Assembly: GCA_048938025.1 (NCBI GenBank)
Contig: JBHLMP010000031.1
Span: 1 to 45,850 of the forward strand
DNA: 45,850 nt
From: Promethearchaeota archaeon
GTDB lineage: Archaea; Asgardarchaeota; Lokiarchaeia; Sigyniarchaeales; SOKP01
Reading direction: 5' to 3'
The translations under genes and the position numbers were made by a program. The notes below the pieces were generated by a model. It saw nothing but the letters and a program-made list of their open reading frames with translations. It was not told the origin of the DNA and did no database searches. Shown piece after piece: positions 1-6,562 of the stretch (within the stretch, counting starts at the first letter, position 1; the number at the start of each line of letters is the position of its first letter).

Positions 1-1309
1 AGAGTATAGTTGGTCCGGGAATACCTGCATCCGTACTAGCATCTATAGTTAGGTTATATTTGGCAATGAACGCGTCAGTATAACCCTCCTCCGAACTATT
101 GGTGTACCCAGTAATGTAGAGATTTCCCGCTCCATCTAACGCAATACCGTTTCCAGAATCACCGTTGTTGCCGCCCCAAGTGATATTCAGTAAGGACGTT
201 CCGACACTGTCATATTTGGCAATGAACGCGTCAGAGTAACCCGCCCCAAAGCTAGAGGTGTCACCGGTAATGTAGAGATTTCCCGCTCCATCTAACGCAA
301 TACCGTTTCCAGAATCACCGTTGTTGCCGCCCCAAGTGATATTCAGTAAGGACGTTCCGACACTGTCATATTTGGCAATGAACGCGTCAGAGTAACCCGC
401 CCCAAAGCTAGAGGTGTCACCGGTAATGTAGAGATTTCCCGCTCCATCTAACGCAATACTTCTTGCAACATCCGTGTTGCTGCCGCTCCAAGTGATATTC
501 AGTAAGGACGTTCCGGCACTGTCATATTTGGCAATGAACGCATCATAATCACCCGCCCCAAAGCTGTTGGTGATCCCGGTAATGTAGAGATTTCCCGCTC
601 CATCTAACGCAATACCGTTTCCAGAATCATCGTAGTTGCCACCCCAAGTGATATTCAGTAAGGACGTTCCGGCACTGTCATATTTAGCAATGAACGCATC
701 ATAACCACCCGCCCCAAAGCTAGAGGTAGCTCCGGTAATGTAGAGATTTCCCGCTCCATCTACCGTAATACCGGTTGCAGCATCATAGGTGCCGCCGCCC
801 CAGGTGATATTCAGTAAGGATGTTCCAGTACTGTCATATTTGGCAATGAACGCATCATAATAACCTGCCCCAAAGCTAGAGGTAGCCCCGGTAATGTAGA
901 GATTTCCCGCTCCATCTAACGCAATACCGTTTCCAGAATCATCGTAGTTGCCACCCCAAGTGATATTCAGTAAGGACGTTCCGGCACTGTCATATTTAGC
1001 AATGAACGCATCAGAATTACCTGCCCCAAAACTAGAGGTGTGCCCGGTAATGTAGATATTTCCCGCTCCATCTACCGTAATACCGTTTCCAGAATCATGG
1101 TTGCTGCCGCCCCAGGTGGTATCGAAATCTAGGGTATAATCAGCCGTAGCAGCGATTTTTAGATAATTCTCTCTGAGCACAAAATTATCTCCGTCTTTTC
1201 CCAAGTTTATGTTAAAGGAATTGGAAGGGCTTTGATTATATTCCGTGAAACATATCGTTGCCATTAAGAAGAAGCCAATTCCCACAATTAAAATGTGTTT
1301 TTTATTCAT
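1..1309 (-). CDS. Secreted SBBP-type beta-propeller repeat protein (3' end outside the window)
   Basis: Hand translation from ATG 1309 (alternative in-frame TTG 1327): signal-like MNKKHILIVGIGFFLMATIC, then 7 x 52-aa repeats (WGGxxxDSGNGIALDGAGNLYITGxTSSFGAGxxDAFIAKYDSxGTSLLNIT), then TIDASTDAGIPGPTIL at the window edge. No stop seen; absent from the ORF track. Confidence 0.9.
   Translation of the reverse strand, partial: MNKKHILIVGIGFFLMATICFTEYNQSPSNSFNINLGKDGDNFVLRENYLKIAATADYTLDFDTTWGGSNHDSGNGITVDGAGNIYITGHTSSFGAGNSDAFIAKYDSAGTSLLNITWGGNYDDSGNGIALDGAGNLYITGATSSFGAGYYDAFIAKYDSTGTSLLNITWGGGTYDAATGITVDGAGNLYITGATSSFGAGGYDAFIAKYDSAGTSLLNITWGGNYDDSGNGIALDGAGNLYITGITNSFGAGDYDAFIAKYDSAGTSLLNITWSGSNTDVARSIALDGAGNLYITGDTSSFGAGYSDAFIAKYDSVGTSLLNITWGGNNGDSGNGIALDGAGNLYITGDTSSFGAGYSDAFIAKYDSVGTSLLNITWGGNNGDSGNGIALDGAGNLYITGYTNSSEEGYTDAFIAKYNLTIDASTDAGIPGPTIL
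56..1120 (-). repeat. Seven tandem 156-nt coding repeats (propeller blades)
   Basis: Motif t(g/a)gcaatgaacgc recurs at 61, 217, 373, 529, 685, 841 and 997. Trp codons fall at 1114, 958, 802, 646, 490, 334 and 178. Confidence 0.97.
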
Positions 1310-1327
1310 TAATCTATACTTTGTCAA

Positions 1328-1371
1328 ATTTATTTCACTTTTTGGTTATATTTATTTCACTTTTTGGTCAT
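1328..1371. repeat. 22-bp tandem duplication immediately upstream of the propeller gene
   Basis: atttatttcactttttggttat followed by atttatttcactttttggtcat (1 mismatch), with a partial third copy ttttgggtcat at 1381-1391. Confidence 0.9.
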
Positions 1372-2265: not shown

Positions 2266-3174
2266 TTATTCACCTTTACTTTGTCTTCTTCTGTATATTA
2301 TATATGAAAGGGATAAGAAGATTATAATGTAGATTATCATCCCTATAGCAGCTGTAAATTCATTTGGGGTAAGCCAATAAGAGTATTCCATTTCAGCTCC
2401 TGGAGGTCCTTCCATTGATGTAATATAACGTTCTGTAGGCATTTCTAAGCTCTCACTTATTATATATCCAAAATAATTAAACAGAAAAAACATTGGAATT
2501 TCATTGTTTTTAGTTACACCAGAATAATTCAAAATGAATGGGATCATTTCCATAACTATTAATAACAGAAAAATACTGGTAATTATCGTAAACGAAGTGC
2601 TTTTCATGAAACTACTTAGGAATGTTATGAAAGATAATAAAACAAAAGCATACAATAATGACCATCCTATAGAGTAAAATATGGTAATGCTTACTTCTCC
2701 ATATTTAATGAAAGCAGTTATAGATACTAAAGTATAAAAGAACGTTATGCATACGCCATTTAATATATAATTGGAAATTAACCTTCCTATAAGTAAGCGA
2801 GTTTTACTTGTTTTTGGAAATAACAAATTACCTGTTTGCCTATAGAAATCTTCTGCTATTATAGAACCACCAAAAGCAGCAGTACTTATCAGAAGTGACA
2901 TTGAAAACCATCCACCAATATAATTTTTCATGAGAGTAGCTGAATTATTAGGTGCCACTTCACCCATTAAATCCGATAAAAATTCATTTAATAGAAACGA
3001 CAAGAAAAATATGCCAAAATACACAAACAACATCAAATATAATTTTTTCACATTCTTCTTTAGTTCAAATTTAACTGTGTCTCCTATTTGTATTAAGTCT
3101 CTTCTAAGACCAGCTTTTTGTCTATCGATTTCTAATTCTTGTAATCTAAATTTTTGTTTTGTAACTAATCCCAT
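2266..3174 (-). CDS. ABC-2 type transporter permease
   Basis: About six hydrophobic segments, EDFYRQTGNLLFPKTSKTRLLIGR ABC-2 motif, 3 nt downstream of an ABC ATPase. Confidence 0.85.
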   Translation of the reverse strand: MGLVTKQKFRLQELEIDRQKAGLRRDLIQIGDTVKFELKKNVKKLYLMLFVYFGIFFLSFLLNEFLSDLMGEVAPNNSATLMKNYIGGWFSMSLLISTAAFGGSIIAEDFYRQTGNLLFPKTSKTRLLIGRLISNYILNGVCITFFYTLVSITAFIKYGEVSITIFYSIGWSLLYAFVLLSFITFLSSFMKSTSFTIITSIFLLLIVMEMIPFILNYSGVTKNNEIPMFFLFNYFGYIISESLEMPTERYITSMEGPPGAEMEYSYWLTPNEFTAAIGMIIYIIIFLSLSYIIYRRRQSKGE

Positions 3175-3177
3175 TTT

Positions 3178-4254
3178 TTATACCTCCATTATAATTCGTT
3201 TTTGTTTCAGATTTGGATCAGTATTGTTAATAGGTAGATTACTTGTTCTGGGATTAATAAGATCTATAAAGAGGTCTTCAAGTAAACCTGCTTTTGGTAC
3301 AGAAAATTCAATTACCTTATAATCATGTCTTAGGAGAACCTTTAGTATTTTTAATTGATTTTTAGGATTTCCATCAAATAATATCTGGAATATTTTGGCA
3401 TCTTTTTTATAATTTAACCAATTTATCTTATTGGAAACTCCTGTATATGGAGTAATTATTTCTTTTAAATGATTTAATACACTCTCCAAATTATCTTCTT
3501 CAGGATGATCAAGTAATTCAATATTAATAATACTCTTTTTAGCTTTAGATTCTAAATTATCAATAGTGTCAAAAGCAATGATTTTTCCTTTATTTATTAT
3601 TGCGATCCTGTCGGCAACTTCACTAATCTCATAAAGTAAATGACTACTAAGAAATATTGTTTTACCCATTTTTTTTAAATCTAAAATAAAATCTCTTACT
3701 TCTCTTCTTGCTTGAGGATCTAATCCTGTTTGCGGTTCATCTAAAACAACAATATCAGGATTATGAATTATTGCAGAAGCTATACCTATTTTTTGACGCA
3801 TCCCTTTTGAAAAAGTTTTAATTTTCTTATCTATCCAATTGATCATTCCAAACATTTCGATAACATCCTCAATTCGTTGATTAACTTTATTTTTAGGATA
3901 TCCCTTAAGCTTAGCAAAATATTTCAAAATCTGGCGTGGTGTTACATTCCCATAGAAAGCAGGATTTTCTATTAAAAATCCAATATTATCCAATAAAAAG
4001 TCTTTATTATGGCTTGATAATTTTTGTAATTTTCCATTACCACGAATCCAAATTTCTCCTTTTGTAGGTTTTAGAAGGTAAGCCATCATCTTCATAGTAG
4101 TGGATTTACCAGCACCGTTTGGACCAAGAAATCCGACTATTTCACCCCTTTTTATATCAATATTGATATTAGAAACAGCATGGAAATCCTCGAATTTTTT
4201 TGTAAGGTTTTTAAAACGAATAATTACATCATTCTTGTCTGAGTTCATTTTCAT
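3178..4254 (-). CDS. ABC transporter ATP-binding protein
   Basis: Walker A GPNGAGKST, signature FSKGMRQK, Walker B VVLDEP, H-loop SSH. Confidence 0.95.
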   Translation of the reverse strand: MKMNSDKNDVIIRFKNLTKKFEDFHAVSNINIDIKRGEIVGFLGPNGAGKSTTMKMMAYLLKPTKGEIWIRGNGKLQKLSSHNKDFLLDNIGFLIENPAFYGNVTPRQILKYFAKLKGYPKNKVNQRIEDVIEMFGMINWIDKKIKTFSKGMRQKIGIASAIIHNPDIVVLDEPQTGLDPQARREVRDFILDLKKMGKTIFLSSHLLYEISEVADRIAIINKGKIIAFDTIDNLESKAKKSIINIELLDHPEEDNLESVLNHLKEIITPYTGVSNKINWLNYKKDAKIFQILFDGNPKNQLKILKVLLRHDYKVIEFSVPKAGLLEDLFIDLINPRTSNLPINNTDPNLKQKRIIMEV

Positions 4255-4585
4255 TGTTTCTTTTACTTTGACTTTTAAAAAACAAAAAAAATGAATTGAA
4301 TTTTAAATTTTTATAGACCAATTTTTAAGAAGAATAATAAAAGGAAAAAAATGTTAAACACTTAAACCTTAATTTTTGATTCAAATAATATTAAAATCTT
4401 GAGAAATTTTTTGTTATAATTATCATGTCTTATCCTAAGAGATATGAAAAATGATAATAATTGGATTTTAATAATATAGACTATTTACAAGATCATAAAT
4501 ATATTTTTTGATTAGCAATTCTTGATATAGGAAAGTAGAAAAGAAGAAACCTATGGAGGAAAGAATTAAACACAAGGTGTATAAA

Positions 4586-6562
4586 TTGTCTGGAAAACAG
4601 ACCAAGGATAATAATGAACCAGAATTGCCAATTGTTGGCGTTTTCGTGTGTCGCTGAGGAATAAATATTGCTGGTATCTTAGATGTCCCGAGAATTGTTG
4701 AAGAGCTTAATAGATTAGAAGGTGTAAAAGCTTTTGAATATCTTAGTATGTGTACTGAAGGAGGATCATCTTATATAAAGGAGCAAATTGAAGAAAGTAA
4801 AATTGAGAGAATTGTTGTAGCTGCTTGTACTCCTAGAACTCATCAACCAGTTTTTCATGCTATACTTGCTGAAGCTGGTTTACCTCCTAGATATTTGGAA
4901 TTTGTTAATATAAGAGAACATTGTAGCTTTGTTCATCAAGCTCCAGAAGTACGTGAAAAAGCAATTCAGAAAGCAATTGAACTCATAAAAGCAGGAATAG
5001 CACGTTCTAGATTATTAGAAGATGTTCCAATAAGAGTAGTACCTGTTAAGCCGGTGGCTCTTGTTGTCGGAGGAGGAATTGCTGGATTATCTGCTGCTGT
5101 CGATTTAGGTGATGCTGGATTTAAAGTCTATCTCGTTGAAAAGAATACAACGATTGGGGGTAGGATGAGTCAATTAGACCGAACATTCCCAACAGATGAT
5201 TGTTCAATATGAATTCTCGGTCCTAAGATGTTAGAGGCAAATCGTCATCCAAATATTGAGATTTTATCATATAGTGAAGTTATTGAAGTCGATGGATATA
5301 TTGGAAATTTTAAGGTTAAAGTTAAAAAGAAGTCAAGATTTGTAGATGATATTAAATGTACAGGTTGTGGAGCATGTCCAGAAGTATGCCCTATTTATGT
5401 ACCTAATTATTTTGATGAAAATCTTTCAGCAAGAAAATGCATTGATATCGCTTTTGCTCAAGCTGTTCCTGCAATTTTTGATATTGCAAGAGAATCTTGT
5501 GTAGAATGTTTTGCTTGTGTTGATTCATGTGAAGAAGATGCTATTGATTTTAGTATTCAAGATAAAGAAGTTGAACTTGAAGTTGGTACTATAATTGTTG
5601 CTACAGGGTGGGATCTCTATCAAGGATCAGATTATGGATATGGTACTTTCGATAATGTTATAAATCAAATCGAGTTGGAGCGGATTCTTGCACCTAATGG
5701 TCCCACTTATGGACATTTAAAACGGCCGTCTGATGGGAAACGTCCTACCAAAGTATTATTCATTAATTGCGTAGGATCGAGAGACATAAATAAAAATGCT
5801 CATTGCAGTGTGATATGTTGTAATTTATCTCTTAAAAACTCAAAACTCATCAAATCAGAATATCCTGATTCCCAAATAGTTTGTTGTTATATAGATATGA
5901 GATGTGCAGGAAAAGATTATGAAGAGTACTATAGACGTTCACGAGAAAAAGGAATTATCTTCTTAAAAGGAATGGTTGGTAAAATTGAAGAAGATCCATT
6001 AACTAAAAATCTAAAAGTACAGTTTGAACCTGTTGGTACAGATACAATTGTCGAGATGGAGTTTCATATGGTTATATTATCATCAGCATCACTCCCATCT
6101 AAAGGTACTGTAGAGATCGCGAGAGTTTTAAATATGGAAAAAAGTCCAGATGGGTTCCTAAAAGAATTTCATGCTCGACTTGATCCAATCAGTACAAAGG
6201 TCCCTGGAATATATATATGCGGTTCAGCTCAAGGGCAAAAAGAAATTGATAAAGCAGTCAGCCAAGCAAAGGGGGCTGCATCTACAGCAAGTATCCCAAT
6301 GAGTAAAAAAGAATACGTTATGGAGTTAATTCGGGCTACACCTTTAGATGAACGTTGTGCCAAATGTTACAAATGTATAGAGTCATGTCCATATAGTGCG
6401 ATTTCAGTAAATGAGAAAGGAAATCTAGTAGTGGATATTATTTTATGCCGAGGATGTGGAACTTGTGAATCTGTTTGTCCTTCTAAAGCAATTGAGTTAA
6501 CATATTTTAGAGATGATCAATATATGGCATTAATTGATGCATTACTTCCTATTGGGGATTAA
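4586..6562 (+). CDS. hdrA: Heterodisulfide reductase subunit A, selenoprotein (Sec at codons 24 and 209; 658 aa)
   Basis: TTG 4586 after aggtgt. ORF-track pieces 4748-5212 and 5228-6562 are in the same frame. TGA 4655-4657 reads VGVFVCR-U-GINIAG (CxCG motif) and TGA 5210-5212 reads FPTDDCSI-U-ILGPKM. Also GGGIAG FAD motif, HCSVICC and ferredoxin CxxCxxCxxxCP motifs. Confidence 0.93.

Follow-up and report, generated by a model that had tools for sequence, protein, structure and literature searches.

How can a gene keep seven copies of one repeat nearly constant over most of their length while a handful of codons differ from copy to copy, and what might such a design serve? The question is raised by the first open reading frame (ORF) of contig JBHLMP010000031.1 of a Promethearchaeota archaeon, which encodes a beta-propeller protein of the SBBP family. 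The window, by which we mean the whole stretch of 45,850 nucleotides analysed here, is this contig (C26) from base 1, in a genome assembly of 3.52 Mb in 88 contigs that is 96.7% complete with 5.1% contamination. We consider it probable that the gene encodes an extracellular, membrane-tethered, seven-bladed SBBP propeller, with blades that evolve in concert and a variable binding face that is under selection. An initial annotation had proposed an archaeal surface receptor or adhesin. The archaeal origin agrees with the names of the homologs, and the surface location with an N-terminal helix and an anchor in relatives; the receptor or adhesin role stands as a suggestion.

The repeat array and its predicted fold

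Tandem Repeats Finder reports a single array at 56-1122 (period 156, 6.8 copies, 88% matches, 0 indels, score 1586), and on the minus strand the stretch 26-1117 divides into seven units of 156 nt (52 codons each), all in the frame of the ORF at 2-1309, much as the initial annotation had described. Blades 1-6 are pairwise 0.85-0.93 identical in DNA. Blade 7 is 0.67-0.78 identical to the others, and its final 10 codons diverge from the repeat after column 42, where columns are counted from the T of the motif TWGG as column 1. Median identity over the seven blades is 0.79 in protein and 0.87 in DNA. The same genome holds five SBBP genes, and the three of them with ordinary diverged blades show identities of 23-35% in protein; the uniformity of the window array is far above chance.

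The annotation had also stated that the repeats are near-identical at most synonymous sites. This is roughly right, as the proportion of synonymous differences (pS) among blades 1-6 is 0.138 in the scaffold (the 44 columns outside the hypervariable set defined below) and 0.163 overall. The residues that it gave for repeat positions 4-6 (SNH/NYD/GTY/NYD/SNT/NNG/NNG), 25 (H/A/A/I/D/D/Y) and 33-34 (NS/YY/GY/DY/YS/YS/YT), with the Trp of TWGG as position 1, are exact. Its view that change is concentrated in a few codons holds for those it listed and misses further variable columns of the gene, namely 9-12 (in blades 3 and 5), 14-15, 21, 28 and 45. Column 21 is Leu (CTC) in six of the seven blades of the window gene alone, and Ile in every relative.

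What does the array fold into? The Pfam SBBP family (PF06739) matches the protein in 7 stretches with 135.8 bits (cut-off 20.5, E 4.4e-40), the tandem matches above the gathering score by which this repeat family is recognised, and the Pfam scan as a whole returns propeller families only, with 64 residues before the blades. An AlphaFold2 model built on an alignment of 56 sequences (pLDDT 87.8, pTM 0.81, 337 of 436 residues with pLDDT of at least 90) consists of a helix at residues 3-24, a disordered linker at 25-55 and seven four-stranded blades. It has 28 strands in 7 groups of four, the N-terminal closing strand being counted, and in repeat columns these are strand A at 7-15, B at 21-27, C at 35-42 and D from 48 to column 2 of the next unit. 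The best solved match by Foldseek is the propeller of CylK (7ron, E 1.5e-25, TMq 0.76, root-mean-square deviation 2.6 A). On this model the window protein is a seven-bladed propeller. Because repeat 7 departs from the consensus at column 43, before strand D, the N-terminal strand is predicted to stand in for the outer strand that repeat 7 lacks, and so to close the ring in the manner of a 'velcro' closure.

The N-terminal hydrophobic helix, whose sequence is nearly identical in the homologs P0001-3, P0008 and P0014, is probably a signal peptide or signal anchor. The gene is open at the contig start, so that the C-terminal membrane anchor falls outside the window. In the paralog on contig C14 and in P0001-3, the sequence ...AGIPGPTIL is followed by a hydrophobic helix and a basic tail, ending ...AGIPGPTILLIGIISALSIGMILKRL.QTNKLRRI; in more distant relatives the C-terminal end consists of ISGYN or IPGYD, a helix and KK. 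Considering the N-terminal hydrophobic helix together with the C-terminal anchor of paralog and homologs, the architecture appears to be that of a type I, surface-tethered propeller. Among the relatives, P0022 passes the Loki-CTERM model (NCBIfam NF033507, cut-off 19.9 bits) with 22.0 bits, and P0005 and P0006 score 18.6 and 13.9. The NCBIfam LipL53 lipoprotein model (NF047494) gives 135.2 bits, below its cut-off of 400, and homologs also score on the delta-60 repeat model, P0001 and P0022 above its cut-off.

Selection at eight columns and their place on the propeller

Circularity was avoided by defining the hypervariable columns without the window gene, on the genes L003a, L003b, L007 and L009, as columns with a proportion of nonsynonymous differences (pN) of at least 0.3 in at least three of the four. 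Eight of the 52 columns in each blade qualify: 6, 7, 9, 11, 26, 28, 34 and 35. The same columns stand out in a wider set, obtained from 120 listed proteins by keeping the 99 with at least three ungapped blades and then the 46 with a median blade identity of at least 0.6. Within these 46 proteins the entropy is 1.2-1.7 bits at the eight columns, 1.0 at column 5, 0.9 at column 12 and at most 0.8 elsewhere.

Eight positions per blade change faster than synonymous sites. In blades 1-6 of the window gene, the hypervariable columns require a minimum of 18 nonsynonymous changes and 1 synonymous change, and the 44 scaffold columns 10 nonsynonymous and 9 synonymous changes (Fisher p 0.008); the contrast is significant, with p at most 0.008, in five of six genes. 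Omega, the ratio of nonsynonymous to synonymous rates (dN/dS), is 0.17-0.37 in the scaffold of the six genes. The rate of nonsynonymous change at the hypervariable columns over that of synonymous change at all columns, dN(HV)/dS(all), is 3.28 for the window gene (column bootstrap 1.90-6.33) and 2.17-3.93 for the other five, and the lower bound of the bootstrap exceeds 1 in all but L008, a gene with 3 blades (0.86-5.20). Omega within the hypervariable codons themselves is 1.8-8.0 in the five genes other than that of the window. The elevated dN/dS that the initial annotation anticipated at the variable sites is thus seen in every gene compared.

Could these columns instead be the least constrained loops of a young propeller, recently amplified from a single blade in the cycle of amplification and differentiation proposed by Pereira and Lupas, and now drifting neutrally? 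Highly repetitive propellers are known from all kingdoms and from 32 of 65 ECOD propeller families, where they have been interpreted as recent amplifications (PMC9218822). Internal blade identity is indeed continuous across the ORFs scored here, from 0.33 to 0.88 in DNA (in a fixed register, which underrates indel-bearing arrays such as L006), and, judging from the consensus, the same columns vary in SBBP proteins generally. Neutral drift, however, predicts a dN that is at most equal to dS, and it is difficult to see how it would yield dN(HV)/dS of 2.2-3.9 in six of six genes, with a lower bound above 1 in five of them. Nor does it fit well with the residues at the hypervariable columns, where Tyr is about 3-fold enriched. 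We therefore regard a drifting young propeller as rather unlikely.

In the set of 46 proteins the hypervariable columns hold 18.7% Tyr (5.9% in the whole proteins), 15.2% Ser, 11.7% Asn and 10.6% Asp, a composition that we take to resemble that of binding paratopes. Many of the variable codons in the window gene (AAC, AGC, GGC, TAC, ACC, GAT, CAT, TAT) are of the NNY type and derivable from AAY, as would be expected if a diversity-generating retroelement (DGR) hypermutated the blades. Such an element can hardly be responsible. The reverse transcriptase family PF00078 has 0 matches in this 96.7% complete genome, in a search whose control was positive in 3 of 14 known genomes, and a search of the genome finds array-like DNA in C26 and C14 only, without a template-like extra copy. 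Among the homologs, moreover, the residues K, Q, E, W, M and R occur in hypervariable columns, and mutagenesis of AAY does not yield them. An arrangement of seven separate targets within one gene is also not known for DGRs.

Where do the hypervariable columns lie on the propeller? By the strands of the model they lie where strand A begins, where strand B ends, at either end of the B-C loop and where strand C begins, and the conserved turns A-B (DGAGN) and C-D (DSAGT) are at the opposite end. The CylK structure offers a reference. Its top face is formed by blade-connecting and internal loops, and residues S318, N334, E374, L438, D440, Y473 and F499 are placed on the top-face cleft or at bromide sites (PMC8916777). 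An HMMER alignment to chain 7fh8_A, the numbering of which reproduces all seven residue letters, puts S318, E374, D440 and F499 on column 9, L438 on column 7, N334 on column 26 and Y473 on column 35, so that all seven of the cleft and bromide-site residues described there fall on hypervariable columns. Given the strand topology and the alignment to CylK, the hypervariable columns would sit on the top face, at the ends of strands A, B and C; the variable residues would then share one face, as the initial annotation had supposed, and not be scattered over the structure.

Among solved structures CylK comes closest, with a catalytic cleft built on the same columns, so the variable face might also be an active site tuned to small substrates, in a catalytic propeller of the kind of CylK or virginiamycin B lyase. 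This we judge very improbable. CylK needs an N-terminal Ca-binding domain that supplies Arg105 (PMC8916777), whereas the window protein has only the 64 residues before its propeller, of which 25-55 are disordered. The columns aligned to Asp440 and Tyr473 are hypervariable, not conserved, and the presence of a signal helix and a membrane anchor speaks for a protein tethered at the surface. A CylK-type enzyme is unlikely, with neither the N-terminal beta-roll domain nor the conserved set of Arg105, Asp440 and Tyr473 found in the window protein.

Concerted evolution, strain differences and assembly

Relatives of the propeller are numerous: 2999 of 8000 scored candidates match at E of at most 0.001, and a threshold of E 1e-30 or less is reached in 31 of 41 related genomes (counting G000). 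The named close matches are each called 'SBBP repeat-containing protein' and come from metagenome-assembled genomes (MAGs) of Promethearchaeota, Lokiarchaeota, Heimdallarchaeota and Helarchaeota, which marks the host as an Asgard archaeon, of the Lokiarchaeia type. The genes most useful for comparison fall into two clades, that of the window gene (with C14, L005 and L008) and that of L003, L007 and L009. Scaffold DNA distances are 0.067-0.134 within a gene and 0.18-0.24 between clades, and at about 20 third positions all blades of one clade share a synonymous variant that differs from that of the other. Such clade-wide uniformity shows that the blades evolve in concert. It may stem from recombination among the 156-nt units of a gene, as gene conversion or unequal crossing-over, or from amplification that took place repeatedly, and either process would leave the same mark.

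Clade-specific nucleotides in all blades are the mark by which Pereira and Lupas recognise independent amplification (PMC9218822), and to that extent the synonymous variants common to the blades are what a young propeller predicts. Against it, both the seven-blade count and the ring-closing N-terminal strand are kept in the two clades, which is easier to reconcile with a design that is maintained than with a new amplification in each clade.

The loop cassettes are combined in more than one way: NYD...IAL occurs with two B-C loops, NNG with two B-C loops, and D..YS with two D-A loops. The array also contains two exact internal repeats, one of 193 nt (see Table) and one of 127 nt (575-701 = 887-1013). 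The first may have arisen very recently by duplication or conversion, or it may be a loop in the assembly, and its ends lie between hypervariable clusters. If the assembly is right, this position of the ends and the mosaic of loop cassettes suggest that cassettes are exchanged through the invariant stretches.

Allelic variation between strains, a further expectation of the initial annotation, is seen in closely related alleles, which differ mostly in the blades and at hypervariable columns. Contig L005, which comes from a different metagenome, shows 2 differences in 2448 nt over the flank, the N-terminus and blade 1 (ungapped codon comparison), followed by 51 differences in the next 375 nt, in 28 nonsynonymous and 8 synonymous codons; all of its later blades have Ile at column 21. 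Among the alleles P0001-3, compared as proteins only and with conserved blade order, variation affects 20 of 56 hypervariable columns; the scaffold has 37 variable columns out of 298, the N-terminus 5 out of 64 and the C-terminus 1 out of 44.

Several side observations concern the relatives themselves. The C14 paralog (locus L002, 54889-55464) is truncated at the contig end, with three blades, the stalk and the C-terminal anchor retained; the uniformity of these blades is lower (0.76 in DNA), and their B-C loops NLWVMG and NMYGAG are unusual. On one metagenome contig, L003, three SBBP genes stand in a row (670-1962, 2288-3928 and 3932-5293), the outer two with blades 86% identical in DNA and the middle one with 63% and a longer C-terminal part. 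The close relatives P0014 (254 aa), P0008 (306 aa) and L011 (2176-3003) have 3 or 4 blades and the same N-terminus and anchor, and in L011 the first three and a half blades of L003a are joined to the tail of another gene. Such forms, found on short contigs of short-read assemblies, may be either real deletions or recombinants or collapsed assemblies. Finally, a 758-aa paralog on contig C51 (14213-16486) has, in addition to seven diverged SBBP blades and a C-terminal anchor, three repeated modules that are each about 90 residues long.

How much of the pattern could be an assembly product, with short reads from several strains or paralogs threaded into one array? Contig C26 opens, and contig C14 breaks off, within genes that resemble each other, and the initial 38 nt of the window are common to both contigs. 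The read data, Logan contigs of four (X1, X3, X4 and X5) of 22 listed runs, none of them RNA, come in array pieces too short to phase the blades, with 63 contigs in X1 and 115 in X4 that match the stretch compared at 90-100%. The flank 1384-2600 is present in X1 with zero differences, and X1, X3 and X4 contain a second copy that resembles 1053-1413 and departs from the window at 1413, which implies a second gene with a similar 5' end. A 13-nt motif from that second 5' end was not found in the genome or in 82 loci, so that the upstream flank of this paralog lies outside the MAG. The genes of C14 and C26 are plausible as tandem paralogs, given the three SBBP genes in a row of L003. The exact internal repeats, the 3- and 4-blade forms on short contigs and the join in L011 are all of the kind that misassembly could generate, and short-read assemblers omit or create highly conserved fungal repeats (PMC12222747).

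Even so, an assembly origin for the variable columns is improbable. Many independent assemblies show the same column pattern, among them complete seven-blade genes in the interior of contigs (L003a, L003b and P0005-7), and so does the single-contig genome G023. There, the three blades of locus L112 are 84-94% identical at the DNA level; 11 columns vary nonsynonymously, at equivalent loop positions, and 7 vary by synonymous changes only. Hypervariable clusters are linked to their neighbours within less than 70 nt, inside one read, and misassembly cannot produce a nonsynonymous excess at fixed columns. The phenomenon itself is not an artefact.

A number of points nevertheless weigh against a selected binding face on a tethered, concertedly evolving propeller. 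The face is assigned by strand topology and sequence alignment, not by measured coordinates, and the Loki-CTERM model is not matched, at E up to 1, by the C14 paralog or P0001, both of the window gene's clade. Omega within the hypervariable codons is just 1.44 when the window gene is taken by itself. If conversion is blocked at diverged loops, the scaffold dS would underrate the age of the loops and inflate dN(HV)/dS. In the hypervariable codons, the differences by position are 0.24-0.40 at the third, 0.25-0.63 at the first and 0.39-0.54 at the second, with the third below both others in five of six genes (equal to the first in L008), and this low third-position difference argues against old, saturated loops merely shielded from conversion. 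Blade order and number are provisional in a short-read assembly, since exact repeats of 193 and 127 nt exceed or approach the read length. Five of the genes (that of the window, C14, L005, L008 and L009) run into a contig end, and the close relatives all come from short-read metagenome assemblies, so that some 'alleles' may be chimeras of paralogs or strains. The break in L005, likewise, could be an assembly jump into a paralog.

Table. Coordinates of the propeller gene, its parts and associated repeats in the window
Feature	Coordinates	Strand	Basis or remark
SBBP propeller coding sequence	2..1309	-	ATG at 1309; ORF list, Pfam PF06739
N-terminal hydrophobic helix, residues 1-24, MNKKHILIVGIGFFLMATICF...	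1238..1309	-	AlphaFold2 helix 3-24
Low-confidence linker, residues 25-55	1145..1237	-	pLDDT <50
N-terminal beta-strand, residues 57-66, ending TW	1112..1141	-	DSSP strand in model
Blade repeat 1	962..1117	-	
Blade repeat 2	806..961	-	
Blade repeat 3	650..805	-	
Blade repeat 4	494..649	-	
Blade repeat 5	338..493	-	
Blade repeat 6	182..337	-	
Blade repeat 7	26..181	-	Columns 43-52 replaced by stalk NLTIDASTDA
Start of C-terminal stalk and anchor, GIPGPTIL	2..25	-	Paralog C14 and homologs continue LIGIISALSIGMILKRL.QTNKLRRI
Perfect 156-nt periodicity, 193-nt exact repeat	111..459		111-303 = 267-459
Two tandem 22-nt direct repeats, 86% alike	1320..1363		11-54 nt upstream of propeller ATG

The tandem 22-nt repeats ahead of the gene may be a regulatory site, such as an operator or promoter element, and an in-frame TTG lies upstream of the ATG, at 1327. 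Further along the window, an ORF at 1590-2225 encodes 211 aa without a Pfam family. A 43-nt direct repeat (2048-2090 and 2211-2253, 98% identical, spacing 163) brackets its 3' end and looks like a small duplication that shifted its stop codon. An ABC-2 type permease (a sub-threshold Pfam match) and an ABC ATPase, at 2266-4254 on the minus strand, adjoin the propeller gene region. No functional link of these neighbours, the 211-aa ORF and the permease/ATPase pair, to the propeller is evident. On the plus strand, 4748-5212 and 5228-6562 merge into a 604-residue HdrA-like protein (span 4748-6562) if the TGA at 5210-5212 (codon 155) is read as selenocysteine, with the junction ...FPTDDCSI-U-ILGPKM.... 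Selenoproteins are known in Lokiarchaeota.

Possible meaning and comparison with known systems

What would a propeller of this kind be for? On the reading that we favour, about 56 positions would together form one binding face rich in Tyr, Ser, Asn and Asp, the specificity of which would be diversified by selection and by the exchange of loop cassettes via the invariant stretches between them. The protein may bind a variable external ligand, for example the surface of a partner cell or a virus, or a glycan, and would belong to a family of such proteins within each genome. A broader proposal is more speculative, and we put it forward with little confidence: that Asgard multigene families of surface SBBP propellers are variable recognition receptors for syntrophic partners, kin or viruses, with a homogenised scaffold and some 56 diversified and shuffled positions, and thus an extracellular, prokaryotic counterpart of the repeat sensors found among fungal NOD-like receptors (NLRs).

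Highly repetitive propellers, and sensors with highly conserved repeats, are known already, and the window protein adds to that kind. A search of the literature, which left subscription journals and supplements outside, found no description of such SBBP or Asgard proteins, nor any paper on Loki-CTERM. Contact and recognition between Asgard archaea and their partners bear on models of the origin of eukaryotes, and Asgard surface proteins are almost unstudied. If the proposal is true, anchored propellers with a fast-evolving, paratope-like face are concrete candidates for the recognition of partners, kin or viruses, and the principle of a homogenised scaffold with hypervariable sites extends from cytoplasmic sensors of fungi and bacteria to the archaeal surface. 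The genes are, in addition, of a class that short-read MAGs break or misassemble.

The highly repetitive propellers of Pereira and Lupas share several features with the window protein (PMC9218822). The median blade identity in protein, given above, exceeds their 60% cut-off, blades are closer within a gene than between genes, clade-specific nucleotides are present in all blades, and forms with odd blade numbers, which may be collapsed assemblies, turn up among close relatives. The name SBBP is absent from the main text as available, and the supplements may still contain members of that type; the main archaeal source there is Euryarchaeota, not Asgard archaea, and that text contains no per-site dN/dS test on a binding face.

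The C-terminal propeller of CylK (7ron, 7fh6-8) is the closest solved fold, with about 30% identity and seven SBBP-type blades, and its top-face cleft residues stand on the same repeat columns as the hypervariable columns of the window protein. CylK is an enzyme of the cytoplasm, made of two domains, and its blades are differentiated, with long internal loops and with Ca sites where the blades join (PMC8916777). The window protein, by contrast, lacks its N-terminal domain and conserved catalytic residues. The LipL53-type lipoproteins of Leptospira (NF047494) are likewise surface-exposed SBBP propellers, although these are bacterial lipoproteins with differentiated blades and the protein described here appears to be an archaeal type I membrane protein. 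LipL53 is reported to bind matrix proteins.

The closest parallel in mode of evolution, and the one drawn in the initial annotation, is with the WD40 arrays of the fungal HNWD/het-e NLRs. The paper on these arrays (PMC12222747) describes repeats that are 80-100% identical within a gene, comparably high to those of the window, and a few codons under diversifying selection on the interaction surface, which the window propeller matches. Concerted evolution is ascribed there to unequal crossing-over, and short-read assemblies are unreliable, as they are here. The repeats themselves are different, WD40 units of 42 residues in 10-11 copies as opposed to SBBP units of 52 residues in seven blades closed by an N-terminal strand, and neither the NACHT/NB-ARC domain (NOD) nor the N-terminal effector domain of the fungal proteins was found by Pfam in the window protein. 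The polymorphism in repeat number of the fungal genes may have its like in the relatives with 3 or 4 blades (P0014, P0008 and L011), which come from short contigs of short-read assemblies. Finally, the fungal NLRs are cytoplasmic, whereas the window protein would be extracellular and anchored in the membrane of an archaeal host.

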